Source of the DNA: Pseudomonadota bacterium
GTDB taxonomy: Bacteria; Desulfobacterota; Desulfobacteria; Desulfobacterales; JAHIVH01
Assembly: GCA_018816735.1 (NCBI GenBank)
Contig: JAHIVH010000085.1
Span: 18,066 to 82,065 of the forward strand
Length of the DNA: 64,000 nt
Direction of reading: 5' to 3'
The first letter of the stretch is position 1; each line of letters opens with the position of its first letter. A program made the translations under genes and the position numbers. This document shows positions 30,244 through 63,339 of the stretch, piece after piece. Below the pieces are notes generated by a model, which made no database searches, was not told the origin of the DNA, and saw nothing but the letters and a program-made list of their open reading frames with translations.

Positions 30244-30287
30244 ATATCCCCTGGTTTTTATCAGATCATCAACCAGGGGATATTTTA
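30244..30287 (+). terminator. Rho-independent terminator after the ferredoxin gene
   Basis: Perfect 13-bp stem, atatcccctggtt (30244-30256) pairing with aaccaggggatat (30271-30283), followed by ttt. Confidence 0.8.
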
Positions 30288-30423
30288 AATTCATAAAAAA
30301 AATCAAACAGTTGACTTTCTCTCCTTTATTTGTTCAATTCCATACCGGTTCCTGAATAGTTAAATGCTTTTATTAAGAGCAACTCGCCAAGAGATACTGT
30401 TTTTTTGGAGAAAGAGGCGCTAA

Positions 30424-40007: not shown

Positions 40008-40045
40008 AAGGCGTTTCCATTTTTTTGGCCGTTTCAGTCAATATT

Positions 40046-40095
40046 AATGACCGTTTGGGTCATTGTCAACACGGTTCTTGTCACGTATCTATAAT
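40046..40095 (+). promoter_or_regulatory. Divergent control region: inverted repeat plus a consensus -10
   Basis: aatgacc-N5-ggtcatt (40046-40064), a TTGTCA direct repeat (40064-40069 and about 40077-40082) and TATAAT (40090-40095), about 30 nt before the activase ATG. There is no good -35 box, as expected for an activator-dependent promoter. Confidence 0.35.
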
Positions 40096-40126
40096 GAAAC
40101 AATCAGACAGACAAACAGAGGAACAT

Positions 40127-40891: not shown

Positions 40892-40917
40892 AGAGAAAAC
40901 GGATAAGGAAAAAATAA

Positions 40918-41949: not shown

Positions 41950-41973
41950 ATAAGGCGGAAAACAAGGACGGTT

Positions 41974-43284: not shown

Positions 43285-44321
43285 AGGCATACACGTATTT
43301 AAAAACAAGAAGAGAAAATCAAACCCTGTGGGCGGAAATTCATAATCCCCCGGTTAATTTTTTGATCATGGATGTTCTGGAAGAATTGCATGAGCTGGTC
43401 AATGCGGTCAAGAATGACGATTCCATCCGGGTATTCATTTTAACAGGCGGCAGGGAAGACTCCTATATCATGCATTTTTCAATCCATGAACTGCTGATGC
43501 TCACCACGCACCTGAAAAAACTTTATCTCCATATTGCCGTCAAATCGAGAATTTCCAGTGCGGTTTTGAAATACATGACCACATTCACGAACTGGCTCAT
43601 GGATCTCTCCCCCTGGTATGAACGGTTCATATTGAAGCAGGCAAAGAAAATGCGACCGTATTCTATGGGGATGTTCTTGTGGATGCAGATGCAGCGGCTT
43701 TATCTGGCGATTGAGCGGATGAACAAGATTACCATTGCGGCCATAAACGGCCCCTGTAATGGCGGGGGAACGGAGATTTCCGCCTGTTTCGATTTCAGGT
43801 TCATGGTGGGTGATCAGGGATTTACCATGGGGCAGCCGGAGTGCTTGCTGAATATCGTTCCCGGCGGAGGCGGCACGCAGAGACTTCCCCGGTTGATCGG
43901 GCGTTCCAAAGCGCTGGAACTGATGCTCAAGGGGAATCAAATAACACCTGCGGAGGCAAAGAATTATGGCCTGTTGACCGATATTTTTGATAAAAAAGAC
44001 TTCCATAAAAAGCTCCAGGACTTTGCCGACCTCATGAGCAAACGACCGCCTGTGGCCGTGGATGCAATCAAACGGTCTGTGCTTGAGGGGATGAATACAA
44101 CACTTCGTCATGGCTTGAGTATCGAACTGGAACAGAGTGTTCGGTGCTTTGACACAAAAGATACCCAAAGAGCAATGGAGAAATATATCGAATATATAGA
44201 ATCCAATATTTTAACATTCGATTACGAAAACGCCACAACCAAAGAGATTGTGGCACTTTTAAACAGAACATCTCATATGATGGAACATGTGAAATTTTTT
44301 GACGGATTCAAGGGGGAGTAA
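43281..44321 (+). CDS. Enoyl-CoA hydratase/isomerase (crotonase) superfamily protein with a large insertion
   Basis: Oxyanion-hole motif INGPCNGGGTE, GQPECLLNIVPGGGGTQRLPRLIG and ALELMLKG place both catalytic Glu contexts correctly. It is 346 aa against about 260 for typical members. Confidence 0.8.
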   Translation: MKAYTYLKTRRENQTLWAEIHNPPVNFLIMDVLEELHELVNAVKNDDSIRVFILTGGREDSYIMHFSIHELLMLTTHLKKLYLHIAVKSRISSAVLKYMTTFTNWLMDLSPWYERFILKQAKKMRPYSMGMFLWMQMQRLYLAIERMNKITIAAINGPCNGGGTEISACFDFRFMVGDQGFTMGQPECLLNIVPGGGGTQRLPRLIGRSKALELMLKGNQITPAEAKNYGLLTDIFDKKDFHKKLQDFADLMSKRPPVAVDAIKRSVLEGMNTTLRHGLSIELEQSVRCFDTKDTQRAMEKYIEYIESNILTFDYENATTKEIVALLNRTSHMMEHVKFFDGFKGE

Positions 44322-45160
44322 TGAAACAGCTTAAAAACAAGGTGGCGGCAATTACAGGAGCAGCCTCAGGCATCGGCAGAATGCTGGCTGTCGGGCTTTC
44401 TAAAGAAGGCTGCCATCTGGCTATTTCAGACATTGATGAAAAGGGCCTTGCTGAAACAAGGAATATGATCGGTGACAGGGTAAATATATCCACCCATAAG
44501 GTAGATGTAGCCAGGCAGGAAGACGTATTCCGGTTTGCGGAAGAGACCATTGCCCATCACGGTGGGGTAGACATGATCTTCAACAACGCCGGTGTCAGCC
44601 TGGGCGATTTTCTGGAGACCGTGCCTCTTGCGGATTTCAAATGGCTCATGGGAATTGATTTCTGGGGTGTGGTGCACGGAACCATGGCCTTTCTACCCTT
44701 GCTGAAAAAAAGGCCTGAAGGGCATATCATCAATATTTCGAGCATAAACGGCATCCTGTCGAACCCGAACAACGGCCCCTATTGCGCTGCAAAATTCGCG
44801 GTCAAGGGATATACGGAAACCCTCTATCAGGAGCTGATGGATACAAACATCCACGTGAGCTGTGTACATCCGGGCGGTATCAAGACAAATATCGGCAGAA
44901 ATGCCCGCGTCAACCGGGCACTTTACAATATAACCAAAGACAGCGCCGTGGAACTATATGACAAGGAACTGTTCAAGACCACGGCAGAACAGGCGGCAGG
45001 CATCATCATTTCAGGCGTCAAGCGGAATGAAAGACGCATCATGGTCGGAAACGACGCCAAAGTCGCGGACATGCTGACCCGGTTGTTCCCCAAAACCATG
45101 GTCTGGCTTTGCGCTGTTGTTACCAGGCGATTGGCAAAGAAATACGCGGCAAACTCGTAG
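44321..45160 (+). CDS. Short-chain dehydrogenase/reductase (SDR), paralogue 2
   Basis: The first 23 residues are identical to the SDR at 38064 (MKQLKNKVAAITGAASGIGRMLA). It has the same NNAG and YCAAK motifs and long identical blocks throughout. Confidence 0.9.
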   Translation: MKQLKNKVAAITGAASGIGRMLAVGLSKEGCHLAISDIDEKGLAETRNMIGDRVNISTHKVDVARQEDVFRFAEETIAHHGGVDMIFNNAGVSLGDFLETVPLADFKWLMGIDFWGVVHGTMAFLPLLKKRPEGHIINISSINGILSNPNNGPYCAAKFAVKGYTETLYQELMDTNIHVSCVHPGGIKTNIGRNARVNRALYNITKDSAVELYDKELFKTTAEQAAGIIISGVKRNERRIMVGNDAKVADMLTRLFPKTMVWLCAVVTRRLAKKYAANS

Positions 45161-48755: not shown

Positions 48756-50597
48756 TTATAATTTGTATTTACCGGCGATGATGGCATCGTAAACGGGTTT
48801 TGCAAGGGGCGTGTATTCATCCTCCCCGGGTAACAGCACATAAAGCGGATCAGGTATTTTTTCAGGATCAAATCCGTCTGTTTTGAGATTGGTTTTTTTG
48901 ATCTTGAATGTGGCGGTTGTTTCAAATTGGGTTTTGACGCGGATAAAAATCGGGACGGCGTATGAGGGCAGGTCTTTTTTTAATCTTTGGGCGAGTTCTT
49001 TTTTATTGATGTCGTCTTCCAGGGTATCGGTGATGATGGAGACCATTCCTGCCCGGCCGTCTGTTCCGGGAATGGCCACGCCATAAGCGGTTGCGGAAGA
49101 TATCCCATCTATCTGGTTTACCATTTCTTCCACTTCTGTGGTGGAGACATTTTCTCCTTTCCATCTGAAAGTGTCTCCCAGCCTGTCGACGAACTGGAGA
49201 TGTTTCAACCCGATCTCCCGCATCAGGTCGCCGGTATTGAACCACATGTCTCCTTTTTTAAATACATCCCTGAAGACTTTTTTGTCCGACTCTTCCTTGT
49301 TCGTGTATCCGATATAGGGAGAAAGATTTGTAATTTCCGTTAACATCAGCCCGGGTCGGCCGGGTTTCACTTTTTTCAGGAAGCCGTTCTGATCCCGAAT
49401 GACGTCCCCATCGTCAATATCATACTCTGCGATGGCATAGGGGGTGGGGCACAGGCCAACACTGCAGTCTATATTGAAAAAATTGGTGAATATGGATGGG
49501 CCTTCTGCTGCGCCGTAAAATTCATACACATGGGGTATGTCAAACCGTTTTTTAAACTGTTTCCAGATATCCGGGCGAAGACCGTTGCCGACAATTTTTT
49601 TCACCGGATTATCCCGGTCATCTGATTTTGGCGGCTGATTCATCAGGTAGCGCAATATCTCGCCAATATACATAAATGTCGTGGTATTGAATTTCCGGGT
49701 ATCGTTCCAGAAATTGCTGGCACTGAATTTTCGCCTGATGGCAATGGCGGCGCCGGATATTGCCGCCGTGGCCCATGCCACATGAAGGCCGTTTGTATGG
49801 TAGAAGGGAAGCGGAATATACATGGTGTCATCAGATGTCAAATCCATATTAAAGCGGCCAAACCATCGGCCCGCACCCACCCATTTGAAATTGAGCTGGA
49901 TAGACGCTTTGGGAAGACCTGTGGTTCCTGAGGTAAATACATAGGCAAAAGGATCTTTTAATCGTATTTCTTTTGTGGTGGATGGATTGGTCAAAGGAAA
50001 CCCCCCGGAGATCCGGGTTAAATCCAGGTAGCCTTCAGGCGGTTTCATATCCGATCCATCTGCCAGAAAATATATTTTGGCTGGCGCCGAAAGGTTCAGG
50101 TCCGGCCGGATTTCTTCAAATGCATCTCTCATCTCTTCGCCCACAATGAACAGATTTTTGCAGGTGATATTGACACTGTGGAGAAGTATCTTGCCGGTCT
50201 GGTTGGGGTTTATCAGGCTTGCGATAGCACCGACCTTGGCAAGCGCGCTGATAATCATGACCAGTTCAGGCCTGTTCTCCATGAAAACACCCACCACATC
50301 TCCTTTTTGAATATGTTCGGAAATAAAGTAGTTTGCATAACGGTTCACAGCCTCGTTGAGTTCCTTATGCGTGAAAACCTGATCTTCATACAAGAGGGCT
50401 CGTTTTTCCGGATGCATGGCTGCATTTCGTTCAATGACCATTCCTACCGAATTGATATCGTTCATGGATACGGTTTTCATTTCAAATACCGTTTTAAGCA
50501 AAGACGGTATTCTGGGAACTCTTGAAATGATTCCGGGTAGAAGATCGCGAAATGTTACAACCAGTTCTGTGTGTTGATTTGTGATAGGTGGTGTCAT
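48756..50597 (-). CDS. Long-chain / FATP-type acyl-CoA synthetase (AMP-forming)
   Basis: AMP-binding motif YVFTSGTTGLPKA, YGAAEG, TGDLM and FRWKGENVST (the FATP/VLACS-type signature). I prefer the ATG at 50597. Confidence 0.9.
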   Translation of the reverse strand: MTPPITNQHTELVVTFRDLLPGIISRVPRIPSLLKTVFEMKTVSMNDINSVGMVIERNAAMHPEKRALLYEDQVFTHKELNEAVNRYANYFISEHIQKGDVVGVFMENRPELVMIISALAKVGAIASLINPNQTGKILLHSVNITCKNLFIVGEEMRDAFEEIRPDLNLSAPAKIYFLADGSDMKPPEGYLDLTRISGGFPLTNPSTTKEIRLKDPFAYVFTSGTTGLPKASIQLNFKWVGAGRWFGRFNMDLTSDDTMYIPLPFYHTNGLHVAWATAAISGAAIAIRRKFSASNFWNDTRKFNTTTFMYIGEILRYLMNQPPKSDDRDNPVKKIVGNGLRPDIWKQFKKRFDIPHVYEFYGAAEGPSIFTNFFNIDCSVGLCPTPYAIAEYDIDDGDVIRDQNGFLKKVKPGRPGLMLTEITNLSPYIGYTNKEESDKKVFRDVFKKGDMWFNTGDLMREIGLKHLQFVDRLGDTFRWKGENVSTTEVEEMVNQIDGISSATAYGVAIPGTDGRAGMVSIITDTLEDDINKKELAQRLKKDLPSYAVPIFIRVKTQFETTATFKIKKTNLKTDGFDPEKIPDPLYVLLPGEDEYTPLAKPVYDAIIAGKYKL

Positions 50598-50638
50598 GTA
50601 TTTTCTCTTATTCTGATTTGTTATCGTTATAAAAGGGA

Positions 50639-51481
50639 TTATAATTTTGTGCCGCAATACTTACAGAAGACGGCATCATGATCATGTCCTTCTGCTGCAC
50701 ATTCCGGGCATGACTGGGTTGAGACTTTTTTAGGCCGCACCCGGGACATCTCCACCGTCACGATTCCTGTGGGAACGGCGATGATGCCATAACCCAGTAT
50801 CATTACCAGGGCAGCCAGGGCCTGACCGGCATTTGTTTTGGGAGAAATATCACCATATCCGACCGTAGTCAGGGTGACGATTGCCCAGTAAATGCTTCTC
50901 GGGATGCTGGTAAAACCGTTTCTCTGCCCTTCGATAATATACATCAGTGATCCCACAATAATGACCAGAATCATGACTGTAAAGAGAAAAATCGTAATTT
51001 TTCTCCGGCTTTCCTTCAGCGCCTGAAGAAGCATGGCAGATTCACCCAGATACTGGGCAATTTTCAATACCCTGAATATTCTTAAAACCCTTAATATCCG
51101 GATCACTATCATGTAATGACTGCCTGGAATGAAAAGCCCGATATACGTGGGGAGAATCGACAGCAAATCAACGATGCCGAAAAAGCTTTTCATGTATTTC
51201 ACCGGCCTCCCCACGCAGAGTATTCTTAAACCATATTCAATGGTAAAGATCAGGGTGAAGAACCATTCCGCAGTATAGAGAATGGGCCCATAGGCTGTTT
51301 TGATACTGTCCACACTGTCAAGCATCACAGTGATGACGCTTAAGAGAATGCTTATGATCAGCAGAATATCAAATAATTTTCCGGCAGACGTATCTGCTTC
51401 AAAGATGATTTCATGCAATACCGCCCGCCAGTGATGTTGCCGTATTTCAGTTGATGGAGCATTCACAATTATTACCTGCAA
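50639..51481 (-). CDS. Voltage-gated-type K+ channel (6TM) with a C-terminal zinc-ribbon tail
   Basis: S4-like IRILRVLRIFRVLKIAQ, selectivity filter TTVGYGD and C-terminal CPEC...CKYC. Alternative (TTG) start; the exact start is uncertain. Confidence 0.85.
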   Translation of the reverse strand: MQVIIVNAPSTEIRQHHWRAVLHEIIFEADTSAGKLFDILLIISILLSVITVMLDSVDSIKTAYGPILYTAEWFFTLIFTIEYGLRILCVGRPVKYMKSFFGIVDLLSILPTYIGLFIPGSHYMIVIRILRVLRIFRVLKIAQYLGESAMLLQALKESRRKITIFLFTVMILVIIVGSLMYIIEGQRNGFTSIPRSIYWAIVTLTTVGYGDISPKTNAGQALAALVMILGYGIIAVPTGIVTVEMSRVRPKKVSTQSCPECAAEGHDHDAVFCKYCGTKL

Positions 51482-51489: not shown

Positions 51490-52560
51490 CTATAATAACA
51501 CTTGATCCGTATACGCCACATTGGCGTCTTCCGATTTATAGAGGGACACCGGTTTGTCATCCCGGAGGTCTTGGACCCAGTTGGGGTTTAAGAGCATGGA
51601 TTTTGCGCTTAAAATAATGTCCGCATCTTTTAAGGCATCATCGGCACTTTTACGGTCATAGATTTTCCCGCAGATCATGATGGGAAGTGTGGTCATTTCC
51701 CGGGTGAGTTGTGCCATATTTTTGTCTGTGCCAAAGGCTTTTTCCTTGTAATCGTAAGTGGAAACAGAAATGGCATCTATGGGCTCATCTGAAAACAAAC
51801 GAATGACTTCCTGGTAGTCTTCCTTTTTCTCAAAAAGAAAGACGTCCATATCGGCAATGCCCCAATTTGAGATTCTGGCGATGAGAAGCCTGTCTTCAGG
51901 AATGACCTGCCGAACAGCCTGGATCACTTCATGGGCAAATCGGTATCTGTTTTTAACCGAGCCGCCATAACCATCTGTCCGATTATTGGAGTAAGAAGAG
52001 AGAAATTGGCTGATCAGATATCCGTGTGCACAATGAATTTCCACACCGTCAAATCCTGCGGCAATAACGCCTTTGGATGTTTCAACAAACCCATTTATCA
52101 CATGGTCAATGTCAAATTGGCTCATCACATCCGGCACAGGATAAGGGGAACCGGTCAATGGATTCATTTGTTTCGGTGTGATCGCACTGGGCGCAATTGA
52201 CCTGTTTGCAGGGTTTACTTCCGGCCATGCCATTCGGCCACAATGAAAGAGCTGGCAAATGATCTTTGCCCCTTGTTTTTGAATCGATTTGACGATAGGC
52301 TGCCAGGCTTCGATTTGCCGTTTTGTAGTCAGGCGGGATTGATTGGGATATCCCTGAGCGCTTTCATAATCTGTTACAATGGCTTCCGTATAAATCAAGG
52401 CAGCACCGTTTTGCGCCCGCCTGACCAGAAAATCAAGCACATCCTTTCGAGGTATGCTGTCATGCTGGGATGACATGCGTGTCATGGGAGCCACGCCAAT
52501 CCGATTTTTCAGTTCAACATGTTTTAGCTTGAATGGAGAAAAAAGTGTCGTGTCTTTCAT
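51490..52560 (-). CDS. Old Yellow Enzyme-family NADH:flavin oxidoreductase
   Basis: 356 aa. N-terminal FSPFKLKHVELKNRIGVAPMT, plus HCAHGYLISQFLS and RTDGYGGS motifs. Confidence 0.9.
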   Translation of the reverse strand: MKDTTLFSPFKLKHVELKNRIGVAPMTRMSSQHDSIPRKDVLDFLVRRAQNGAALIYTEAIVTDYESAQGYPNQSRLTTKRQIEAWQPIVKSIQKQGAKIICQLFHCGRMAWPEVNPANRSIAPSAITPKQMNPLTGSPYPVPDVMSQFDIDHVINGFVETSKGVIAAGFDGVEIHCAHGYLISQFLSSYSNNRTDGYGGSVKNRYRFAHEVIQAVRQVIPEDRLLIARISNWGIADMDVFLFEKKEDYQEVIRLFSDEPIDAISVSTYDYKEKAFGTDKNMAQLTREMTTLPIMICGKIYDRKSADDALKDADIILSAKSMLLNPNWVQDLRDDKPVSLYKSEDANVAYTDQVLL

Positions 52561-52581: not shown

Positions 52582-54327
52582 TCAACCTGTTATATGGCGC
52601 ACCATCGCCCTTCCGATAAATCTGGCCTTTGTCCCCAGGTTGAATCGGTTTAAATTTGTTTTTAAAATCCCTTTGGTAAATCGGGTGTGTTTTTTATAAT
52701 CGATATTCACTTCCACAATGACCGGTGTATGACCTGCAGCCAATTGAAGTGCCTTGGTGATGACCGTTTCGGCATCTTCATTTCTTTTCATCATCAGGAA
52801 TTGAGCGCCGGTTGCCATCGCTACCCCTTTGATGGACAGGTTTCCCAATACGGTACAGACTTTTCTGTTATAGGGAAGTTCCTGGGCCTGTGCGATTTGG
52901 GACAGTTCTCCATCTTTAAAGACAAAAAAAACAGCGCCGGTTTTAAGGGAAGTTGCGGTTAGAATTTCCATGCAGGTCATGGTAAATGCGCCATCGCCTA
53001 TAATTCCCACGACCTGGTTTTCGGGATGTGCCAGTTTTGTTCCGATCACTGCCGGTACAGCATACCCCATACAATTGAAATCGGTTGGTGATATGAATCT
53101 CCTGGAAGCATGAATCGGCATCAATTCTGCAGCAAGAAAGGTATGATTGCCATCGTCTGCCACAACAAAGTCATCGTCCTTCAGGCTGTTTCTCAGTTTT
53201 TCAAAAAAAACAGCCGGATTGACACGAGTCCCGCTGTTGTGCGCCAGCCATTCCTTTTTGTAGCTTTGTTTGTCTTTTTTTATCTGATCCCGGATATGGG
53301 TCCGATGATTTTGGGGGTTTTGTTTCTGCTGCAGTTTTTGCAGGACTGCATGAAGCATATTCAATGCATCTCCTTTGATTATCACCCTGGCCGGGTAATT
53401 GACGTTGAATACAGAAGGATTGATGTCAATATGGATCAGATTTTCAGGTACTGCCACACCGAAACTTCCTGTTGCGATTTCTCCAAATCGCGTGCCTATG
53501 GCCAGCATGCAGTCGCAGTTTTTAAACGCATTAGATGCCGCAGGCACGGCATATCCGCCAAAGCCCATCCCTGTGTGCAGCGGATGGTTTCCCGGGAATA
53601 CGCTTAATCCCTGCAGCGTGGTGCATACCGGCGCATTCAGATATTCGGCAATCCTGACGAGGTTATCCGTGGCGTCACGGGCACCCCAGCCCGCAAAAAT
53701 ACCCGGATTTTTTGCAGACATGATAAGCTCTACAGCCTGGTCGATTAGGGCGTCATCCGGATCAAATCCGGATTTTTTATCTTTTGAATCGTAGGGAGAC
53801 AAGTTTTCGATTTCGCCTGCATACAACTGGAGGTTGACGGGCACCTCCACGAAAACAGGCCCTGGTTCGCCGTCATGGGCGATTCGGTATGCTTCAAAAA
53901 TAGCAGGGACGATGTCCTTGTGCTCATTTATTTTGAATGTTTTCTTTGTTATTTCAGCCAAAAAATTCTGTTGATTCATTTCATGGAGCTGAAACGCGTA
54001 CTTACCGTCCGTCCTTACGCCTCCGGATATGACAATCATTGGGATTCCATCCAGGAATGCCTCACCTATGCCTGCCGATGCATACGCCGCCCCTGCAGCC
54101 GGAACAATAACCAATGTACCGGTCTTGTCAGATGTCCGGCTGATGGCATCTGCCATGAATGATGCGCATGCTTCATGGGTGACGAGAATAGGCGTAATGG
54201 TTTTCGAAAGATTTAATTCATCGTAAATTTCTGTGTTATGAACACCGGGAATGCCAAAAGTGTAAGTGATGCCCAACTCTTCCAGTGCATATCTGACCAA
54301 CCAGGCACCTGTTTTTTTCATATTCAT
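52582..54327 (-). CDS. Thiamine-diphosphate-dependent enzyme (acetolactate synthase-like superfamily)
   Basis: 581 aa. N-terminal Pyr domain (FGIPGVHNTEIYD...THEACASFMADA) and the ThDP motif GIIGDGAFTMT...E. Substrate unknown. Confidence 0.9.
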   Translation of the reverse strand: MNMKKTGAWLVRYALEELGITYTFGIPGVHNTEIYDELNLSKTITPILVTHEACASFMADAISRTSDKTGTLVIVPAAGAAYASAGIGEAFLDGIPMIVISGGVRTDGKYAFQLHEMNQQNFLAEITKKTFKINEHKDIVPAIFEAYRIAHDGEPGPVFVEVPVNLQLYAGEIENLSPYDSKDKKSGFDPDDALIDQAVELIMSAKNPGIFAGWGARDATDNLVRIAEYLNAPVCTTLQGLSVFPGNHPLHTGMGFGGYAVPAASNAFKNCDCMLAIGTRFGEIATGSFGVAVPENLIHIDINPSVFNVNYPARVIIKGDALNMLHAVLQKLQQKQNPQNHRTHIRDQIKKDKQSYKKEWLAHNSGTRVNPAVFFEKLRNSLKDDDFVVADDGNHTFLAAELMPIHASRRFISPTDFNCMGYAVPAVIGTKLAHPENQVVGIIGDGAFTMTCMEILTATSLKTGAVFFVFKDGELSQIAQAQELPYNRKVCTVLGNLSIKGVAMATGAQFLMMKRNEDAETVITKALQLAAGHTPVIVEVNIDYKKHTRFTKGILKTNLNRFNLGTKARFIGRAMVRHITG

Positions 54328-54789: not shown

Positions 54790-54904
54790 AAATTTATCCG
54801 GGCAAACATACTAACGAATCCAATGGATCACAGAGATGTTTGTTCAATTTTAGACTAAAGTCGACTATCGATTTTTAGCAAGCTTGAAAACAGGATCATA
54901 TAGT

Positions 54905-56122
54905 ATGGATTTTCTGGATACGATTAAGGAAAAAGCGTCCTCAGACGGTAACGCTGATCTTAATGCGTTTAGTCAAAGGGGGAAAAAGATCATCGGGTAT
55001 TTTTGTTCCTACTTCCCCGAGGAAATCATTCATGCCGCAGGCATGATTCCTTACAGGATGAGAGCAACCGGAAAAAGTGACACCACAAAAGGGGATATCT
55101 TCTTTTCATCCCTGAATTGCACCTTTGTAAGACGGTGTTTTGACAAGGCACTGAATCAACATTTTGATTTTTTGGATGGGATTATTTTTTTAAATGGGTG
55201 TGACCATACCAGACGGCTGTATGACAATTGGCGGCATGCAGATATTAAACCGGACTTCAGGTACATGTTTGTTGCGCCTCACAAAATAGGGAGACTTGCT
55301 GAAGAACGGTTTTCTGAAGAAATGGTCAATCTGAAAACGGCTGTCGAAAATGCATTTGATCTTGTGATAACCGATGATGCCTTGCGTCGTTCCATTCATC
55401 TGTACAACAAAAAGCGCCAATTGATTGCCGCGCTTTACAGGGAAAGACTAAAAGAAAGCGTCCCCATAAAAGGCAGTGAACTGCTTTCAATCATGCTGAC
55501 GATAACCATGATGCCGGTTGAGGATGCCATTTCCCTCCTTGAAACGGTTATTGAAAAAATAGATGGACGAAAAACACACAAAGAAGGCGACTTGCGTGTT
55601 TTTATGGGTGGGGGGTGCGTTGAAGAAATTGCCCACCTTGAGCTGATAGAATCTGTAGGTGCTTCCATTGTGGCAGACAATCTTTGCCTGGGATACCGGC
55701 ATGCGGACATGCTCTGTGATGAATCCATGGATCCCTTTTTATCACTGGCCCGAAGGTATCTGAATCATTTTTCCTGCCCAAGGATGATGAATGATTTCAG
55801 AAGACGACTCGATTTTCTTCATACAGTCAAAAAAGAGGCGGCCATAGATGCATTCATTTTTGAAAAATTGAAATTCTGTGATCTCTGGGGCGGGGAGATG
55901 TATCTTTGCCGACAGGAATCAAGAAAACACAATTATCCGATTTTGCTGCTTGAAAGAGAGCTGTACGGTGGAAGCACCGGTCAAATACGCACACGGATAC
56001 AGGCTTTTTTTGAACAGGTCAGGAATCAATCTTATACACCGTCAGAGCTTGTCGTAAGCGCCGGGAATAATTACAAAGCGGTGATGGGGGGTATAACAAG
56101 AGAGGAAAAGGATCATTCATGA
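54905..56122 (+). CDS. BcrC/BzdN/HgdB-type subunit of an ATP-dependent radical CoA-ester enzyme
   Basis: KKIIGYFCSYFPEEIIHAAGMIPYRMRA and NGCDHTRR, FCDLW blocks of the PF06050-type family. About 405 aa from the ATG at 54905. Confidence 0.85.
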   Translation: MDFLDTIKEKASSDGNADLNAFSQRGKKIIGYFCSYFPEEIIHAAGMIPYRMRATGKSDTTKGDIFFSSLNCTFVRRCFDKALNQHFDFLDGIIFLNGCDHTRRLYDNWRHADIKPDFRYMFVAPHKIGRLAEERFSEEMVNLKTAVENAFDLVITDDALRRSIHLYNKKRQLIAALYRERLKESVPIKGSELLSIMLTITMMPVEDAISLLETVIEKIDGRKTHKEGDLRVFMGGGCVEEIAHLELIESVGASIVADNLCLGYRHADMLCDESMDPFLSLARRYLNHFSCPRMMNDFRRRLDFLHTVKKEAAIDAFIFEKLKFCDLWGGEMYLCRQESRKHNYPILLLERELYGGSTGQIRTRIQAFFEQVRNQSYTPSELVVSAGNNYKAVMGGITREEKDHS

Positions 56123-57465
56123 AAAAAACATTTGAATATATTGTCGTGGGCTCAGGCCCTGGCGGAGCGCCGGTCGCCCTTGAACTGGCAAAAGCGGGAA
56201 AACAGGTTTTGGTTCTTGAACGCGGGGCCTACCATAAAAAATTTCTGGGATTTCCTTTGGGTGCCCGTTTATCTGAACGGTTTTTCTGTTTTAACCGTTC
56301 GAAGGAGGGCGTGATTCTGGAACGGGGGCTGACCGTGGGGGGATCGTCGATGATCTACCAGGGAAATGTTTTTGATCCGCCCGAATTCCTAATAAAAAAA
56401 ATGGGGCTTGACTTCAGACAGGAAGCGGAGGATCTGAAAAAGGAAATCGGCGTAAAAACATTGCCCGCCCATTTTTACAATCGGCTTTCAAATGGTGGCA
56501 AAAGATTGATGGCAGCGGCAGAAGAACTGGGCATGCCATTTTTGGAGCAGGAGAAATTTGTCAATCCGGATAAATGCAAACCGGGGTGCGACTGGTGCAT
56601 GATGGGCTGCCCCCATGATGCCAAATGGACCACAAGACGGCTGATTGAAGACGGCTTGAATCATTACAAACAAACATTTACATTGATGGTGTCAAGCCCG
56701 GTGGAACGGATTCTTTTTAATCCGCAGGGCAACCGGGCAACCGGTGTGGTCCTGAAAAACGGCCAGCAGATTATGGGAGAGAACATTATCCTTGCTGCCG
56801 GCGGCATCGGTAGCGCAGGCATTCTTATACGTTCGGGTGTTGATAAGGCCGGCAAACGCTTTTTCATGGATCCCATGACGATTCTTTTCGGGATCAGTAA
56901 ATATGATGATGGCGGTGCATGGGGAGAACAGACATTTACCCATGCCATAGAATCGTTTGCGGAAACAGAAGGGTTTATGATCGGAAACAGTGCGGCATTT
57001 GGAACGTGGCTTGTCATGTGTGGCACAAGAATTGACTCCGCAGCCAGGACCTTGTTCAAGGCCCCTTTTGTAAAAAGAGGCATGGGGCTTTTTGTGAAAC
57101 TGGCTGAGGACGATAAGGGAGAGATATATCCCAACGAAAGGACGAGCAAGCCCATGACAGAAAATGATATCCGGCGAATGCAGAAAGGAATTGACATCGC
57201 AAGTGAACTGATGGTTAAGGCAGGTGTCATGCCATCGAGTATTTCAACGTTGAAATGGGCTGGCGGGCATCCCGGCGGCACTATAGAGATGGGAAAGCTG
57301 GTCAATCGGTCATTCCAGTCGGATATGGACAATCTCTATGTATGTGATGCCAGTGTGTTCCCCGTATCTCCGGGATCTCCTCCCAGTTTGTCTGTGATGG
57401 CCATGTCCCGGCTTCTTTCCAAATTTCTCCTGGGAAAAGTAACACCGGAAGAAAGATATGTTTGA
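56119..57465 (+). CDS. GMC-family FAD-dependent oxidoreductase (short form)
   Basis: Dinucleotide fold YIVVGSGPGGAPVALELAKAGKQVLVLERG and the GMC C-terminal signature LYVCDASVFPVSPGSPPSLSVMAMS. ATGA overlap with the upstream gene. Confidence 0.85.
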   Translation: MKKTFEYIVVGSGPGGAPVALELAKAGKQVLVLERGAYHKKFLGFPLGARLSERFFCFNRSKEGVILERGLTVGGSSMIYQGNVFDPPEFLIKKMGLDFRQEAEDLKKEIGVKTLPAHFYNRLSNGGKRLMAAAEELGMPFLEQEKFVNPDKCKPGCDWCMMGCPHDAKWTTRRLIEDGLNHYKQTFTLMVSSPVERILFNPQGNRATGVVLKNGQQIMGENIILAAGGIGSAGILIRSGVDKAGKRFFMDPMTILFGISKYDDGGAWGEQTFTHAIESFAETEGFMIGNSAAFGTWLVMCGTRIDSAARTLFKAPFVKRGMGLFVKLAEDDKGEIYPNERTSKPMTENDIRRMQKGIDIASELMVKAGVMPSSISTLKWAGGHPGGTIEMGKLVNRSFQSDMDNLYVCDASVFPVSPGSPPSLSVMAMSRLLSKFLLGKVTPEERYV

Positions 57466-57503
57466 AAAGAGCCTGGATAAATTTTAAAGATTGAGAAAAG
57501 AAA

Positions 57504-58907
57504 ATGAACAAGACAAAGAAGACACTCAAGCCCTTTGAGCTCTTGAACTACCACATGGATCTGAAAATCGATATTCTCCAGTTCCTTTTTAAATTTCCCC
57601 GTTTCCTGAACGGATTTCTATTTTTTCTAAGACCGATTTATCTTAAGAAAGAAACGGCCTGGAATAAAAGATTCAGGTGGCTTTTTCTGGTTCTGGGTGC
57701 CGGAAAAGCAGATACCCTGGAATTAAAGGCCATGAGCCATGCCCTTTATGCGGTTACGGATAATTTTTTTGAAGTCAAGGCTGCAAAAAAAAATCGTGAG
57801 AAAATTGTCTGGGTGGAGTGGATTCTAAACCCTGAGATATGCGAAGCCTTTGATCTTGTTTCATTTAACCCGGAAGTATTGAATGTGTTTGCCAATTCAA
57901 AAGGCATGGAATACCCGCCGATGATTATAGAGGCTGCCGAAAATCAGGGCACGCCCATTGAAAACTGTTCTGCCCAGAAGCTCGCGGTAGGTTCCCTGAT
58001 TCTGGAGCAGATCCCCAAGCCGTCTTTGATTCTGGGAGGATCGCATCCGTGTGATACCAGCATATCCATTTATCAGACCCTTGAATATCTGACAGGTGCG
58101 CCTTCCTATATTATGGATTTCCCCTACTGGAAGGATGAAGATTCCTACCGGTATTATGAAAAAAATACCTGGGAGCTACTTTCATTTCTAAAAAAGGAAA
58201 CCGGAAAGGACGTTGACTGGGACAAGTTAAAAACACTTCTTGACCGTGTTAATCAGATCAACAATTACCTCCGGGAAATTTGCGAGATGTCCAGAGCCAA
58301 ACCCTGCCCGTCTTCAAATTCCCTGTTGGCGCTGGCCTGGGCCATAAGGGAAGTGAATCTAAGGTCACCTCATATGTTGAGCATGGTGAAGGCAATGCAT
58401 CAACTGGTTCGGAAACGGTATGAAAAGGGAGAGGGCGTCGTAAAAAAAGAAAAATTGAGAATTCTGTTATGGTTCCCCCCCATACCGTTTTTCTTTTATT
58501 ATTTTAAATGGATGGAAGAAAATTTCGGCGCAGTGATTGTGGCGGATTTTATCGGTTATGTCTCTACCGTCCATATTGATACGTCTTCAAAAGAAACCAT
58601 GATAAGAGATCTGGCCATATCGCAGATGCATCTTGCCATGGGACGTCAATGCCACGGTCCTATGGAATTTATCACAGACGAGATGCTCAAGCTGATCGAT
58701 GAGTATGAGCCGGACTGCATGATATTCTCCGGACACAATGGCTGCAAACACGGGTGGGCAGGATTGAAAATCATTCAGGATATATGCCGCGGCAAAGACC
58801 TCCCCGTCCTTTACCTGAATCTGGATATTATGGATAAAAGACACACATCTGAAGAGGAAATCAAAAAGCAAACAATTACCTTTTTCAAAAGTCATGGATG
58901 GGCATGA
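57504..58907 (+). CDS. BcrB/BzdO/HgdA-type subunit of an ATP-dependent radical CoA-ester enzyme
   Basis: 467 aa. NCSAQK, SHPCDTS and GHNGCKHGW blocks, with overall collinearity to the 41974 protein. Confidence 0.85.
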   Translation: MNKTKKTLKPFELLNYHMDLKIDILQFLFKFPRFLNGFLFFLRPIYLKKETAWNKRFRWLFLVLGAGKADTLELKAMSHALYAVTDNFFEVKAAKKNREKIVWVEWILNPEICEAFDLVSFNPEVLNVFANSKGMEYPPMIIEAAENQGTPIENCSAQKLAVGSLILEQIPKPSLILGGSHPCDTSISIYQTLEYLTGAPSYIMDFPYWKDEDSYRYYEKNTWELLSFLKKETGKDVDWDKLKTLLDRVNQINNYLREICEMSRAKPCPSSNSLLALAWAIREVNLRSPHMLSMVKAMHQLVRKRYEKGEGVVKKEKLRILLWFPPIPFFFYYFKWMEENFGAVIVADFIGYVSTVHIDTSSKETMIRDLAISQMHLAMGRQCHGPMEFITDEMLKLIDEYEPDCMIFSGHNGCKHGWAGLKIIQDICRGKDLPVLYLNLDIMDKRHTSEEEIKKQTITFFKSHGWA

Positions 58908-59712
58908 ATTGATATTTGCAGGATTGGATATAGGGTCTCTTACAGCCAAAGCAGTTCTCCTTGAAAACGATATCATGATTGCATCCGCTATCATTCGGGT
59001 CCGGCCATCAGCCCTGGATTCTGCAAAAGACGTGATGAATGCCGTGATAATGGAAAAAGGATTGTCAGAACAAGATATTGCCTGCTGTTGCGCCACCGGG
59101 TATGGCAGGCTTGATATTCCCTTTGCCGATCTCAATATGAGTGAAATTTCATGCCATGGCATGGGGGCTTTTTTCACCGATAACGGCATTCGGACGATTA
59201 TCGATATTGGCGGTCAGGACTGCAAGGTGATTGTTGTCAATGAAAAGGGCTTGATCAAAGATTTTATCATGAATGACAAGTGCGCGGCAGGAACCGGCAG
59301 ATCCCTTGAAATGCTCGCCAAAACCTTAGATGTTCCCTTGTCTTCACTGGGTCCATTGACATTGAAGTCCTGGCGTCCTATTGATATTACCAACAAATGC
59401 AGCATTTTTATGGAACTCGAAGTGCTGGACGCCTTATACAGCGGGAAGAAGCTTACGCACATCGCTGCTGGCCTTTCAGATGCAGTGGCCAAGCGGGTGG
59501 CCTCCCTTTCGGCAAGTGTACAGATGGAAAACCCGGTTTGTGTGACAGGCGGTGTTTCCAAAAACAAGGGGGTTTTGAAGTTTCTGGAAAAACGCATGCA
59601 AAGAACGTTTGTAGTGCTTCCGGTCGATCCCCAGATTGCTGGCGCACTGGGTGCTGCTGTGTTTGCCATGAGGTCATTTGAAAAAAAAGAAAAGGAAGCG
59701 TTCAGGAAATGA
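58894..59712 (+). CDS. BcrAD_BadFG-type ATPase subunit 1 (BzdP/BcrD/HgdC-like)
   Basis: FAGLDIGSLTAK, DIGGQDCK, NDKCAAGTGRSLE and NKCSIFMELEV. Overlaps the upstream gene by 14 nt. Confidence 0.9.
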   Translation: MDGHELIFAGLDIGSLTAKAVLLENDIMIASAIIRVRPSALDSAKDVMNAVIMEKGLSEQDIACCCATGYGRLDIPFADLNMSEISCHGMGAFFTDNGIRTIIDIGGQDCKVIVVNEKGLIKDFIMNDKCAAGTGRSLEMLAKTLDVPLSSLGPLTLKSWRPIDITNKCSIFMELEVLDALYSGKKLTHIAAGLSDAVAKRVASLSASVQMENPVCVTGGVSKNKGVLKFLEKRMQRTFVVLPVDPQIAGALGAAVFAMRSFEKKEKEAFRK

Positions 59713-60518
59713 TCACCGCAGGCATTGATGTGGGGACCCGGTTTTTAAAAATCGCCATTGTGGAAGATTCCCGTCTTCTGGGAGCATCCTGCCTGGAAAT
59801 GAACCGGCAGTTCAAAAAGGTTTTCAATGCTGGGCTGGATATGGCTGTTGACGATGCAGAGCGGCAATCAGGACATCGGATAAAGAAACGGCACATCAAA
59901 AAAATGATGGCAACCGGATATGGCGCCCATCTGGTCAAGAAAGCCAACAGGATAGTCAAAGAATCGGTTTGCAGTGCTTTAGGCGCGCATGCCCTGAATC
60001 CGAATATCAAAACCGTCATCAACGCGGGTGGCTTTTTTATTCGTGTGGTTACCCTGGGCGACAACGGTCTGCCCAAGGAAGAAGCGATCAATGAAAAATG
60101 TGCCGCAGGAAGCGGCAAATTCCTGGAAATGATTGCCGGAGCCATTGATATGCCATTTAATCAGATTTCGTTTCATGCCGGACGGTCAGAGAGTCCCTTT
60201 ACCCTGACCAACAGCTGTGCGGTATTTGCCGAAAGCGATGTCATCAGCCAGTTGAACGCCGGCTGCCTGCCCGAGGACATTATTGCCGGTGTGATTCAGT
60301 CGATCGTCAATAAGACAATCACACTCCTGAACAGCGCAAATGCCGTATCGCCTGTATGCGTCACAGGTGGCCTTGCGGAAGTCTCTTTCTATACGTCACT
60401 TCTTTCTGAAATGACAGGCCATGAAATTGTTATCCCCGATATACATCCTCAGCTCTTACCTGCCTATGGCGCCGCACTGGCGGCCCGTATAAAACAAAAC
60501 GGCACGGGTTCATCCTGA
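59709..60518 (+). CDS. BcrAD_BadFG-type ATPase subunit 2 (BzdQ/BcrA-like)
   Basis: ITAGIDVGTRFLK, NEKCAAGSGKFLE and NSCAVFAESDVIS. More divergent than subunit 1 (INAGG in place of DIGGQD). ATGA overlap with subunit 1. Confidence 0.85.
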   Translation: MITAGIDVGTRFLKIAIVEDSRLLGASCLEMNRQFKKVFNAGLDMAVDDAERQSGHRIKKRHIKKMMATGYGAHLVKKANRIVKESVCSALGAHALNPNIKTVINAGGFFIRVVTLGDNGLPKEEAINEKCAAGSGKFLEMIAGAIDMPFNQISFHAGRSESPFTLTNSCAVFAESDVISQLNAGCLPEDIIAGVIQSIVNKTITLLNSANAVSPVCVTGGLAEVSFYTSLLSEMTGHEIVIPDIHPQLLPAYGAALAARIKQNGTGSS

Positions 60519-60558: not shown

Positions 60559-60597
60559 AGGGCTCACGCAAATTTATTTTTGGGTGAGCCCTTTTTA
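60559..60597. terminator. Bidirectional Rho-independent terminator between convergent operons
   Basis: Stem agggctcac (60559-60567) pairing with gtgagccct (60584-60592), followed by ttttag. A T/A-rich loop allows function on both strands. Confidence 0.75.
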
Positions 60598-60598: not shown

Positions 60599-61762
60599 TT
60601 ACATCACATAGCCTGAAATAATTTCTTTCATGATTTCCGTGGTGCCGCCGCCTATGGAGAGAATGCGGTTGTCACGGTAGAGTCGTTCCACAAGGGTCTC
60701 TCTCATGAACCCATAGCCGCCAAATATCTGCACTGCATCATAGGTGACCTTGTCGCTGATCTGACAGGCAAAATTTTTAGCCATGGACACCTCTTTCAAC
60801 TGATCGACACCGGCATTCATTTTTGCGGCGACTCTGTAAGTAAATTCCCGGCTGGCTTCTACAAGCGTTGCCATATCCACGAGCTTGTGGCGGGTGACCT
60901 GAAATCCGTTCAGGCGCTTTCCGAACGCTTCCCTGGTTTTGGCATATTTGATGGCTTCTTCAAGGGCAAGCTGCGCGGTCATATTGGCCATGACACAGAG
61001 CATGAGCCGTTCCATCTGGAAATTTTCCATGATGATATAAAATCCCTTGTTCTCCTCTCCAATACGGTTTGCAACAGGGACCCTGCAGTTGTCAAAAAAG
61101 ATTTCCGCCGTGTCGGATGCCCACCAGCCCATTTTCTTGAGCGCCCGGCCGACCTTGTATCCGGGCATATTTTTTTCCATGACCAGAAAACTGATGCCAT
61201 GGGCGCCTTCGCCACCGGTCCTGACGGCACAGGTGAGATGATCTGCGCGCACGCCTGTTGTAATAAAAGTTTTACTGCCGTTTACGATGTAATGATCGCC
61301 ATCTCTTACAGCAGTTGTTTTGAGATTGGCCACATCCGACCCGCCTGACGGTTCGGTGATGCCAAGGGCTGCCATTTTTTCTCCAATGAGAACGGGTTTT
61401 ACGAATTTATCCTTCTGTTCCGGTGTTCCGTGCCTGATGATAGGCGGAAGGGCAATACCAAAAGAACCGATACCTGACACCAGTCCCGCTGATCCGCATC
61501 TCATCATTTCTTCATTAAAAACGATAGCTGTAAACACATCACCTTCTGCGCCACCCAGCTCTTCGGGCATCCCTATGCCCAGATAACCCAGATCCGCCAT
61601 CTTTTTATATATGTCCACCGGATATCCACCAGCTTCTTCCCATTCAGCAACATGAGGCGTGATTTCCTTTTTTACGAATTCGCGAAGTGCTTTCCTGAAA
61701 AGCTGATGTTCTTTTCCAAAATACTCCTGACAGGTATTTGAGGTACTGGCTCCAATCGTCAT
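60599..61762 (-). CDS. Acyl-CoA dehydrogenase (IVD/LCAD-type catalytic base arrangement)
   Basis: 387 aa. GITEPSGGSD and QIFGGYGFM motifs. The C-terminal IGGGTTEIM has Gly where MCAD has the catalytic Glu of YEGT, while a Glu sits in NFQMERL at the IVD-type position. Confidence 0.9.
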   Translation of the reverse strand: MTIGASTSNTCQEYFGKEHQLFRKALREFVKKEITPHVAEWEEAGGYPVDIYKKMADLGYLGIGMPEELGGAEGDVFTAIVFNEEMMRCGSAGLVSGIGSFGIALPPIIRHGTPEQKDKFVKPVLIGEKMAALGITEPSGGSDVANLKTTAVRDGDHYIVNGSKTFITTGVRADHLTCAVRTGGEGAHGISFLVMEKNMPGYKVGRALKKMGWWASDTAEIFFDNCRVPVANRIGEENKGFYIIMENFQMERLMLCVMANMTAQLALEEAIKYAKTREAFGKRLNGFQVTRHKLVDMATLVEASREFTYRVAAKMNAGVDQLKEVSMAKNFACQISDKVTYDAVQIFGGYGFMRETLVERLYRDNRILSIGGGTTEIMKEIISGYVM

Positions 61763-62121: not shown

Positions 62122-63339
62122 TTAGCCCTTTAATACCCTCAGTAACCTGAAGATATCATTATCATCCATGATCTTGGGTACAGGGTAGGGAATGCATTCC
62201 CAATGGATGGAATGGGCAATTTCCTTGAAATCAGATTCCTTGAGTTCAGGAATGGTTGCATCTATGCCGTATGCTTGGTTCATCGTGCGAATGGCTTCAA
62301 TAAAAGCTTTTGTTTTTTGGGCATCGCTCATAGAGGGGTGTGAGATATTGATGATATCAGCCAGTCTGGCCAGACGCTTTTCAACTGTTTTGCCATAGAA
62401 ATCAAAAACAGCAGGCATAACCGCTCCAATCACCCGGCCGTGAGGCAAATTGTACATATTGCCGATTTTATGCGCAAACGGATGAACATAACCTGTCAAG
62501 GAACGGTTGAGTACAATGCCCCCATAATAGGAGGCCATCATCATTTGACTGCGAGCCACTATATCCTTGCCATTCTTATTGACCTTGTCGATATTATCGA
62601 AAATCATTCTGATCGCCACCTCTGAATAGATATCGGACGTCTGGCAGTGTGCGCTGCCGATATATCCCTCTATAACATGGGAGAGCGCATCAATGGCGGT
62701 AATCGTCGTAAGAAAGGGGGGCAAACCAAGGGTAAGTTCAGGATCAAGTATGATGAAATGTGGGTGGATCATGAAGTCATTTATTGTATACTTGGTGTTT
62801 TTTTTGGGGTCGGTTATAACCCCTGCGCTGGTGGTTTCAGCGCCTGTGCCTGAAGTTGTGGGCACGGCGAAGATACGCGGTACCTTTTTGGGGATGGGAA
62901 GCATGATCTTGAAGTATCCGCCTAGTTTATCCGCAGTCAGGTTGGGTCTTACAACGCGACCGGCAACGACTTTGGCACAGTCCATTGATGAGCCGCCACC
63001 AAAGCCTATTACGGCGTCGCAGCCATTTTTCAGATAGAGCGCATATGCATCCTCTATATTGTCAACCGAAGGATTCGGCTGCACGCCGTCATATATTGCG
63101 TAAGACATGCCGATCTCATCGAATGCTGCAAACAGCTTATCAAGGAGCCTTATCTCCATCAGTATGGAATCGGTAACGATTAAGGGCTTTCGAATCCCCT
63201 GGGTTTTAATCAGGGCGGGAAGTTTCTTGACACTCCCCGGACCCTGCAGCAATTCGCTTGTCTGGGGAGGGATCAGATACATAGAATAGGCCAGGGTTGT
63301 CTTCAATGCTTTGAGCAGCGGTTTTCTAAAAGGCATCAT
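62122..63339 (-). CDS. Iron-containing (group III) alcohol dehydrogenase
   Basis: 405 aa. GFGGGSSMDCAK, PTTSGTGAE and metal-binding His contexts (ALSHVIEGY, HPFAHK). Confidence 0.9.
   Translation of the reverse strand: MMPFRKPLLKALKTTLAYSMYLIPPQTSELLQGPGSVKKLPALIKTQGIRKPLIVTDSILMEIRLLDKLFAAFDEIGMSYAIYDGVQPNPSVDNIEDAYALYLKNGCDAVIGFGGGSSMDCAKVVAGRVVRPNLTADKLGGYFKIMLPIPKKVPRIFAVPTTSGTGAETTSAGVITDPKKNTKYTINDFMIHPHFIILDPELTLGLPPFLTTITAIDALSHVIEGYIGSAHCQTSDIYSEVAIRMIFDNIDKVNKNGKDIVARSQMMMASYYGGIVLNRSLTGYVHPFAHKIGNMYNLPHGRVIGAVMPAVFDFYGKTVEKRLARLADIINISHPSMSDAQKTKAFIEAIRTMNQAYGIDATIPELKESDFKEIAHSIHWECIPYPVPKIMDDNDIFRLLRVLKG

Follow-up and report, generated by a model that had tools for sequence, protein, structure and literature searches.

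The stretch of DNA considered here, which we call the window, is 64,000 nucleotides long (positions 18,066 to 82,065 of the forward strand of contig JAHIVH010000085.1, assembly GCA_018816735.1, from a Pseudomonadota bacterium placed in the Desulfobacterales) and carries on its + strand a five-gene operon for two HGD-D proteins (HGD1 and HGD2), a short GMC-family flavoprotein (here simply GMC) and two BcrAD-type ATPase subunits (ATP1 and ATP2; Table 1). The five open reading frames (ORFs) are co-directional and tightly coupled: reading the sequence, we find ATGA overlaps between HGD1 and GMC at 56119-22 and between ATP1 and ATP2 at 59709-12, an overlap of 14 nucleotides between HGD2 and ATP1, and a gap of 38 nucleotides between GMC and HGD2. 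The HGD1-GMC pair is translationally coupled in the window. An earlier note on this DNA had placed five + strand ORFs at these coordinates and had pointed out the first of the overlaps and the cysteine contexts of both ATPases, all of which are borne out. We favour the ATG at 54905 over an alternative TTG at 54884 as the start of HGD1, because an AGGA lies 9 nucleotides upstream of the former. Beyond ATP2, a hairpin followed by a run of T is likely the terminator of the operon; our pattern scan overlooked it because its loop is longer than 8 nucleotides, and the promoter and terminator scans returned no more sites than they did in shuffled sequence.

HGD1 and HGD2 belong to the benzoyl-CoA reductase/2-hydroxyacyl-CoA dehydratase (BCR/HAD) family, and their cysteines lead us to conclude that their cofactor architecture is probably that of BzdNO, in other words of the reductase type. 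Within this family DCCP contains two [8Fe-9S] clusters, BzdNO an [8Fe-9S] cluster plus an open-site [4Fe-4S]-OH2 cluster, and the dehydratases a [4Fe-5S] and a [4Fe-4S] cluster (PMC11971306). The best sequence match of HGD1 in the PDB is BzdN (8s02_B, 1.8e-35), and its C34, C72, C99, C261, C291 and C325 align to Cys36, Cys73, Cys100, Cys263, Cys293 and Cys327, the six ligands of the BzdN [8Fe-9S] cluster, which serves in electron transfer and storage and holds at least two electrons (PMC11971306). All six residues are invariant in 23/23 GMC-linked homologs and in 3/3 examined later; the remaining four cysteines of HGD1 vary among the GMC-linked homologs. Aligned to HGD1, HadC keeps four of the six columns (without those of C34 and C261) and MbdN three. 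HGD2 has only three conserved cysteines, C155, C183 and C414, which align to BzdO Cys95, Cys128 and Cys380, the ligands of the open-site [4Fe-4S]-OH2 cluster, and are invariant in 25/25 and, in a second alignment, 24/24 family members. Among solved structures, the HGD2 family profile scores BzdO highest (141 bits), ahead of HadB (108), DCCP (98) and MbdO (84). With the six-cysteine BzdN set in HGD1 and a HGD2 family closest to BzdO, the earlier note's preference for a Bcr/Bzd-like enzyme over a plain 2-hydroxyacyl-CoA dehydratase gains support.

In the profile alignment the column of the BzdO proton donor Glu65 is occupied by E124 of HGD2 (in N-P-E), the majority residue of the family at less than 90% conservation, and the acid/base His131 of BzdO aligns to Ser186, at a position where family members differ. 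HGD2 as modelled by AlphaFold (predicted local distance difference test score, pLDDT, 85) matches BzdO, HadB and MbdO about equally (template modelling score, TM, 0.70-0.73) and N/beta-type subunits less well; HadB comes as near to HGD2 in structure as BzdO does, identity to BzdO by structure alignment is 17%, and fold comparison does not separate reductase from dehydratase alpha subunits. HGD2 also begins with about 100 extra residues rich in aromatics and Arg/Lys (residues 1-109, 57504-57830), an N-terminal extension that is shared by the orthologs and modelled as confident helices, ahead of the Pfam HGD-D match that begins at residue 110.

None of the five proteins reaches an NCBIfam equivalog cut-off. 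The scores are 131.5 against 453.8 for BzdN, 30.2 against 448.6 for BzdO, 193.9 against 380.2 for BzdQ, 138.9 against 700 for HadC and 41.9 against 750 for HadB, with those for BcrA, BcrB, BcrC and BcrD all far under cut-off; HGD1 and HGD2 both score best with the NCBIfam model of DCCP (NF040772), at 184.6 and 73.8 against 350. These scores, together with the replacement of the catalytic His131, lead us to judge from the sequence that the HGD1/HGD2 enzyme is not a benzoyl-CoA reductase ortholog. One might still argue for a divergent but genuine class I reductase of benzoyl-CoA or a substituted aryl-CoA beside which the GMC gene is incidental, since no solved relatives are closer than BzdN and BzdO, whose cluster ligands follow the same pattern, and since ATP1 resembles BzdQ most closely. 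We consider this very improbable, given the low equivalog scores, the distance to BzdO, the loss of His131 and the conserved GMC linkage described below, and given also that the cluster has no ferredoxin gene, that no dienoyl-CoA hydratase/Had/Oah set lies beside the operon and that the hosts are strict anaerobes, whereas class I benzoyl-CoA reductases have been described from facultative anaerobes (PMC11971306).

BzdNOPQ (class I, Aromatoleum sp. CIB, PDB 8S02; PMC11971306), the best sequence and profile match among solved structures, shares the heterodimer of a six-cysteine [8Fe-9S] and a three-cysteine open-site [4Fe-4S] subunit and the two-gene ASKHA ATPase module with cluster-bridging cysteines; it differs in its catalytic His131 (Ser or variable here), its ferredoxin donor, the absence of a GMC partner, a second ATPase subunit that is not known to be as degenerate as ATP2, and its host's lifestyle. 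The 3-methylbenzoyl-CoA reductase MbdONQP (Thauera chlorobenzoica, PDB 9G87, 9GAI) is likewise a four-subunit ATP-dependent reductase, but MbdN is without three of the six double-cubane columns and there is no GMC protein. DCCP and its reductase DCCP-R (Carboxydothermus hydrogenoformans, PDB 6ENO, 7YYL) share the six-cysteine [8Fe-9S] site, ATP-dependent reduction and a C-D motif after the second ligand; unlike the pair studied here, in which only HGD1 has the six cysteines, DCCP is homodimeric, each subunit holding a double cubane, and so is its reductase; DCCP has no known physiological function (PMC7317905).

ATP1 and ATP2 differ sharply from each other. ATP1 has all the expected motifs (DIGSLTAK, DIGGQD, NDKCAAGTG, NKCSIFME and GGVSKN), which are kept in the orthologs, and its best specific NCBIfam model is BzdQ (194 bits, under the cut-off of 380). 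ATP2 reads NAGGFF in place of DIGGQD and GGLAEV in place of GGVxKN, with loss of the Asn, and retains both cluster-ligand contexts (NEKCAAGSG and NSCAVFAE), so that the cysteine contexts of the bridging cluster are present in both subunits. To follow such features across genomes we located GMC relatives in species-representative genomes (80 loci) and in metagenome contigs, numbering the loci with the prefix L, and took as the ortholog clade those 51-81% identical to the GMC protein of the window, at 12 independent loci. All nine ortholog loci with an ATPase pair show GG[L/F]F for GGQD in ATP2. Among 1.8 billion 50%-identity representatives, the closest roughly 35 matches of ATP2, which forms a distinct lineage there, mostly read GG[L/A]F and CAAGSG, with canonical sequences only lower down; ATP2 would thus be a stable lineage and not a decaying gene, because its closest relatives are mostly as degenerate as it is. 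Its best PDB match is MbdQ. A milder form of the same departure is seen in MbdP, the second subunit of the solved 3-methylbenzoyl-CoA reductase, which is also non-canonical (DIGGQT, GGIMRW) but retains the Gln, where ATP2 has lost both Gln and Asp. We infer an asymmetric ATPase in which ATP1 alone would be fully competent. The earlier note had proposed a heterodimeric ATPase and had counted a second subunit without functional ATP motifs as evidence against its proposal: the canonical motifs are indeed lost in 9/9 orthologs, but the subunit is a conserved lineage with its ligands intact and the heterodimer stands, as a conserved pair in 9/9 ortholog loci, although some other GMC-linked systems have a single ATPase. 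The note's reading of the gene order as N-O-P-Q-like, and so as a match to Bzd, does not hold, as ATP1 is the BzdQ-like subunit and the order differs among orthologs, most of which run HGD2-HGD1-GMC.

An enzyme that needs only occasional activation could make do with a half-dead ATPase, and it is possible to imagine the HGD pair as a redox-neutral radical dehydratase or hydratase for which ATP1/ATP2 is a mere activator and GMC interconverts a hydroxy and an oxo substrate. HadB is the second-best profile match of HGD2, the His131 of BzdO is absent, and an AcrC-like acyl-CoA dehydrogenase gene adjoins the operon. We regard this as unlikely. The full double-cubane set of HGD1 is missing in dehydratase beta subunits (PMC11971306), the ATPases are a conserved pair and not the single activator gene typical of dehydratases (PMC7317905), and there is no CoA-transferase gene, with AMP-ligases found instead. 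The (R)-2-hydroxyisocaproyl-CoA dehydratase HadBC and its activator HadI (PDB 3O3M, 4EHT) illustrate the contrast: they share the fold family and the bridging-cluster ATPase fold, but HadC binds a [4Fe-5S] cluster, a single gene encodes the homodimeric activator, the electron is recycled in a redox-neutral reaction, and no flavoprotein partner takes part.

What sets the operon apart is its flavoprotein. Across 25 homologs, down to 36% identity, the invariant features of GMC are the GxGxxG motif (G11/G13/G16), H384 (in GGHPGGT) and a Cx3Cx2Cx3C(P) motif at residues 153-164, and this ferredoxin-like four-cysteine motif, which the first reading of the sequence had missed together with the loss of GGQD and K-N from ATP2, is also present in 23/23 HGD-linked family members. 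The AlphaFold model (pLDDT 89.5, predicted TM score 0.90) has as its top Foldseek matches Fe-S-bearing dehydrogenases, namely the large subunit of fructose dehydrogenase and the alpha subunit of Burkholderia FAD-GDH (TM 0.76-0.79). In a sub-profile alignment C160 and C164 align to Cys218 and Cys222 of the latter, BcGDH, which together with Cys212 hold a 3Fe-4S cluster at the surface, through which electrons pass from FAD to the partner subunit (PMC6719666); the sub-profile was needed for this positional equivalence, as the motif segment alone matches ferredoxins in the PDB and not GDH. A comparable four-cysteine motif in a GMC acetol dehydrogenase holds a cluster of the [4Fe-4S] type at a distance of 11 A from the FAD (bioRxiv 10.64898/2026.06.11.731722). 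Because its four-cysteine motif sits at the Fe-S position of these enzymes, GMC is predicted to be able to relay single electrons.

The characterized Fe-S GMC dehydrogenases, among them Burkholderia FAD-GDH alpha (6A2U), Gluconobacter fructose dehydrogenase (7W2J) and the methanotroph acetol dehydrogenase GmcA, have in common with the window protein the GMC fold, the GMC-type His and a Cys-rich loop at the same position, which in them holds a 3Fe-4S or [4Fe-4S]-type cluster as a relay from FAD to partner (PMC6719666; bioRxiv 10.64898/2026.06.11.731722). Yet they are 526-545 residues long and periplasmic or membrane-bound, rely on a 'hitch-hiker' subunit of the twin-arginine translocation (Tat) system and pass electrons downhill to cytochrome c, whereas the window protein, at 448 residues, is cytoplasmic, has four cysteines plus a Pro and would partner a low-potential radical enzyme. 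Its N-terminus is the Rossmann/FAD motif itself, with no signal peptide, and neither a Tat-signal small subunit nor a cytochrome c acceptor is encoded in the operon or in the ortholog clusters. The earlier note was right that the operon contains no ferredoxin gene, but the observation misleads, as GMC has an Fe-S motif of its own and ortholog clusters often include nitroreductase and ferredoxin genes. The sole ORF of the window with a ferredoxin-type CxxCxxCxxxCP motif (CTGCEECVDVCP) lies at 30059-30355, 25 kb from the operon, and is weakly similar to a small ferredoxin-like ORF adjoining a nitroreductase gene in L001.

The association of GMC with the HGD pair is conserved. In 11/12 ortholog loci HGD1 lies immediately upstream of GMC and HGD2 is adjacent, so that GMC is a conserved partner, as the earlier note had supposed, and not a recent insertion. 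The order HGD1-GMC-HGD2 is found in the window and its two closest relatives; the remaining orthologs have HGD2-HGD1-GMC, with the ATPase pair upstream, divergent or, once, absent within 10 kb. In a neighbour-joining tree of 87 GMC family members the window clade is entirely HGD-linked, and linkage recurs in at least five other, more distant branches, with two further architectures: GMC, a protein of about 489 residues, HGD1 and HGD2 with two canonical ATPases, and HGD1 and HGD2 with a single ATPase followed by GMC. The four-cysteine motif is found in 23/23 HGD-linked members, 3/17 linked to pyridoxal-phosphate (PLP) enzymes and 27/46 others, counts that describe a correlation among related sequences and not an independent-sample statistic, and that a [4Fe-4S] cluster of low potential would explain more readily than a [3Fe-4S] one. 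The protein database has no 100% match to HGD2 and only 64 relatives of it at E <= 1e-20; each of these is at least 41% identical and carries a generic name, all come from metagenome-assembled genomes, and their taxa are those of the GMC orthologs (Spirochaetota, Smithellaceae, Deltaproteobacteria, Ignavibacteriales, Desulfatibacillum). Our full-text literature searches returned no paper linking a GMC protein with BCR/HAD-family enzymes, in agreement with the earlier note, which knew of no Bcr, Bzd or Hgd system with such a partner. Every component comes from a known family; what is undescribed is their conserved combination, in which a BzdNO-type pair and an asymmetric ATPase occur with a cytoplasmic Fe-S GMC flavoprotein as an integral part. 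Two papers that came into view were set aside: the anaerobic benzene 'flavoprotein' (PMC13416013) is a VAO/PCMH-type protein unrelated to GMC, and the isoprene reductase paper (PMC10134865) invokes double cubanes by analogy only and is not relevant here.

We propose, at a probability of about 0.5, that the operon encodes a variant of the ATP-driven reductases with a built-in FAD/[4Fe-4S] electron-exchange module, acting on a CoA ester. What we observe are the gene set, the ligand sets, the conserved linkage, the degenerate ATP2 and the Fe-S motif of GMC; which cofactors are bound, whether the proteins touch, which way electrons flow and what the substrate is are matters of inference, and the enzyme might work as follows. 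The substrate would be an acyl-CoA made by the nearby AMP-forming ligase, and would face the [4Fe-4S] cluster of HGD2 at its open coordination site, with the double-cubane [8Fe-9S] cluster of HGD1 storing and relaying electrons. ATP1 and ATP2 would form an asymmetric heterodimer bridged by a [4Fe-4S] cluster, in which ATP hydrolysis, probably at the ATP1 site only, yields single electrons of very low potential. Ferredoxin or flavodoxin is the usual reductant of archerase-type ATPases, whose electron injection depends on ATP (PMC7317905). In the proposed system GMC might take the place of the free ferredoxin or flavodoxin, its FAD accepting both electrons of a hydride oxidation and its near-surface [4Fe-4S] cluster handing them on one at a time, either to the ATPase or to the double cubane. 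The hydride donor would most plausibly be a hydroxylated intermediate of the same pathway, which would close an internal electron loop. Spending one ATP on each electron can bring its potential down by about 500 mV (PMC11971306), and therefore even an alcohol/ketone couple at -250 mV could be a sufficient donor. Taken further, and more tentatively still, this could amount to a ferredoxin-independent class of reductase in strict anaerobes, in which GMC, docked on the double-cubane subunit or the ATPase, oxidises a hydroxylated pathway intermediate and recycles its two electrons, boosted by a one-active-site ATPase, for the difficult reduction of a CoA ester, in a redox-neutral loop; we think this strong form doubtful.

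Several observations weigh against the proposal of a built-in electron module. The invariant catalytic His of GMC suggests real substrate chemistry and not only electron relay; a CH-OH oxidoreductase role on a CoA ester, as the earlier note envisaged, is possible, and a relay role is at least as well supported. L087, the one exception among the ortholog loci, has a tandem GMC pair and no HGD genes within 10 kb, and apparently GMC can work, or be encoded, separately from HGD. Many members of the wider family are encoded alongside PLP enzymes, in settings of an unrelated kind. In several ortholog clusters, genes for nitroreductase-family proteins and for 2x[4Fe-4S] ferredoxins could be the real electron input. 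On the HGD side, the choice of a reductase over a dehydratase draws on cysteine patterns, and the HGD2 fold, as the dehydratase alternative would have it, matches HadB as well as BzdO.

The chief alternative is an arrangement in which GMC would simply be the next or previous enzyme of the pathway, an alcohol or hydroxyacyl dehydrogenase acting on the HGD product or precursor, co-regulated with the reductase and electronically uncoupled from it. Its electrons would then pass to a ferredoxin, to the nitroreductase-Fer4 protein or to an electron-transferring flavoprotein, and the reductase would be fed by an ordinary ferredoxin. The invariance of His384, the L087 locus, where GMC has thiolase, ligase and nitroreductase genes as neighbours and HGD is missing, the recurrence of nitroreductase and Fer4 genes in ortholog clusters and the non-HGD contexts of the wider family all speak for it. 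We nevertheless hold it to be a possible rather than a probable account, since the HGD1-GMC adjacency is strict and the pair translationally coupled, linkage recurs in distant branches with different architectures, the four-cysteine motif is present in all HGD-linked GMC proteins, and in the window no ferredoxin or nitroreductase gene lies near the operon.

If GMC does serve as a dedicated Fe-S flavoprotein for this enzyme, it would represent a new electron feed to BCR/HAD-family ATP-driven enzymes, which carry out some of the lowest-potential reductions in biology, with a hydride donor in place of low-potential ferredoxin. Such a feed would be relevant to energy-limited fermenters and syntrophs among the Spirochaetota, Smithellaceae, Desulfomonilia and Ignavibacteriales, and would extend the Fe-S GMC dehydrogenases from periplasmic, cytochrome-linked oxidation of sugars and alcohols to cytoplasmic low-potential chemistry. 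Most double-cubane proteins are without a known physiological role, and BzdNO so far has the only defined catabolic function (PMC7317905, PMC11971306); were the ferredoxin-independent loop true, double-cubane [8Fe-9S] enzymes would gain a second catabolic context, along with an electron source. The ATPase, half degenerate and conserved in that state, is a natural case in which to ask how many ATP sites each electron requires, and the finding flags a widespread catabolic gene cluster of anoxic metagenomes that has so far gone without assignment.

Table 1. Positions in the window of the operon, its signals and neighbouring genes, and a second BCR/HAD-family system.
Feature	Position	Strand	Match or basis
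HGD1, BzdN/DCCP-like subunit, 405 aa, predicted double-cubane [8Fe-9S]	54905..56122	+	Pfam HGD-D 7e-78
GMC, short cytoplasmic GMC-family flavoprotein, 448 aa, predicted FAD + [4Fe-4S]	56119..57465	+	GMC_oxred_N 2e-14, GMC_oxred_C 5e-11
GMC Cys-motif codons, C153-x3-C157-x2-C160-x3-C164-P (CKPGCDWCMMGCP)	56575..56610	+	within GMC gene
HGD2, BzdO/HadB-like active-site subunit, 467 aa, predicted open-site [4Fe-4S]	57504..58907	+	Pfam HGD-D 7e-52
ATP1, canonical BcrAD/HgdC-type electron-transfer ATPase subunit, 272 aa	58894..59712	+	PF01869 (BcrAD_BadFG) 1e-51
ATP2, degenerate partner ATPase subunit, 269 aa	59709..60518	+	PF01869 (BcrAD_BadFG) 3e-33
Hairpin GGGCTCAC-N16-GTGAGCCC then TTTTT, between convergent ATP2 and acyl-CoA dehydrogenase genes; likely terminator	60560..60596		sequence reading
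AMP-forming ligase	48756-50657		
Old yellow enzyme (OYE), stand-alone	51490-52560		
Thiamine diphosphate (ThDP) enzyme	52582-54327		
Acyl-CoA dehydrogenase (AcrC-like), convergent to operon	60599-61762		
Iron-containing alcohol dehydrogenase (Fe-ADH)	62122-63339		
Second system: AraC regulator, divergent	38970-40007	-	
Second system: single BcrAD ATPase	40025-40891		
Second system: HGD-D subunit with 3/6 double-cubane Cys columns	40918-41949		
Second system: HGD-D subunit with His at BzdO-His131 column	41974-43284		
Second system: enoyl-CoA hydratase	43281-44321		
Second system: short-chain dehydrogenase/reductase	44321-45160		

The genes around the operon and its orthologs point to a CoA-ester catabolic pathway, without fixing the substrate. 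Ortholog clusters recurrently contain AMP-forming ligases, SCP-x-type thiolases and a nitroreductase-family protein, often with a 2x[4Fe-4S] domain, and also AraC, GntR or sigma-54 regulators, enoyl-CoA hydratase, acyl-CoA dehydrogenases and OYE-type or aldehyde:ferredoxin oxidoreductase (AFOR) enzymes. The window has a ligase, a stand-alone OYE and an acyl-CoA dehydrogenase gene close by (Table 1), and contains no thiolase, nitroreductase, CdhC-like or CooC-like gene. The ThDP enzyme, acyl-CoA dehydrogenase and Fe-ADH genes had suggested an anaerobic alpha-oxidation by hydration to a 2-hydroxyacyl-CoA and lyase cleavage, but we dropped the ThDP enzyme as a core component, its gene recurring in L016 only and in no close ortholog cluster. 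The GMC paralogs of L087 (8525-11389), 52% and 51% identical to the window protein and both with four cysteines, have as neighbours a sigma-54 activator, two AMP-ligases, MaoC, a thiolase and a nitroreductase. In L085, a fused protein of 690 residues (OYE-type Oxidored_FMN plus Pyr_redox_2, 14611-16683) adjoins the AMP-ligase gene of an ortholog cluster.

Some further genes recur in parts of the family. The conserved protein of about 489 residues that lies between GMC and HGD1 in L019, L021, L035, L039, L056, L057 and L080 (e.g. L056 11677-13146) has no Pfam match. A CdhC-like protein (weak PF03598, about 257 residues) and a CooC/CbiA-like P-loop ATPase (about 262 residues) occur together in 11 GMC+HGD loci, with each of the two families in 12, and once more in L085 (L004 5632-7193, L081 5029-6565 and L085 2812-4306, with genes also in L006, L016, L021, L035, L036, L039, L047, L056, L057, L066 and L080), and the pair is never found in non-HGD GMC loci; the two may be metallocluster maturation factors. 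Five ortholog clusters encode a strongly hydrophobic protein of about 140 residues (36-57% identity) with no Pfam match and no homolog in the window (L001 11359-11784, L002 5765-6220, L081 8167-8583 on the - strand, L085 5983-6402 and L086 13026-13460), which could be a membrane anchor or a transporter component. The PLP-linked branch of the GMC family, beside a PALP enzyme, comprises L017, L022, L023, L025, L027, L028, L030, L037, L038, L043, L044, L061, L062, L065, L071, L073 and L075, mostly with a three-cysteine ([3Fe-4S]-type) motif and in some loci with amino-acid permease and M20/M28 peptidase genes; it appears to have an uncharacterised amino-acid-related function. Finally, the window carries a second, separate BCR/HAD-family system at 38970-45160, which has no GMC gene and in this contrasts with the operon studied here.

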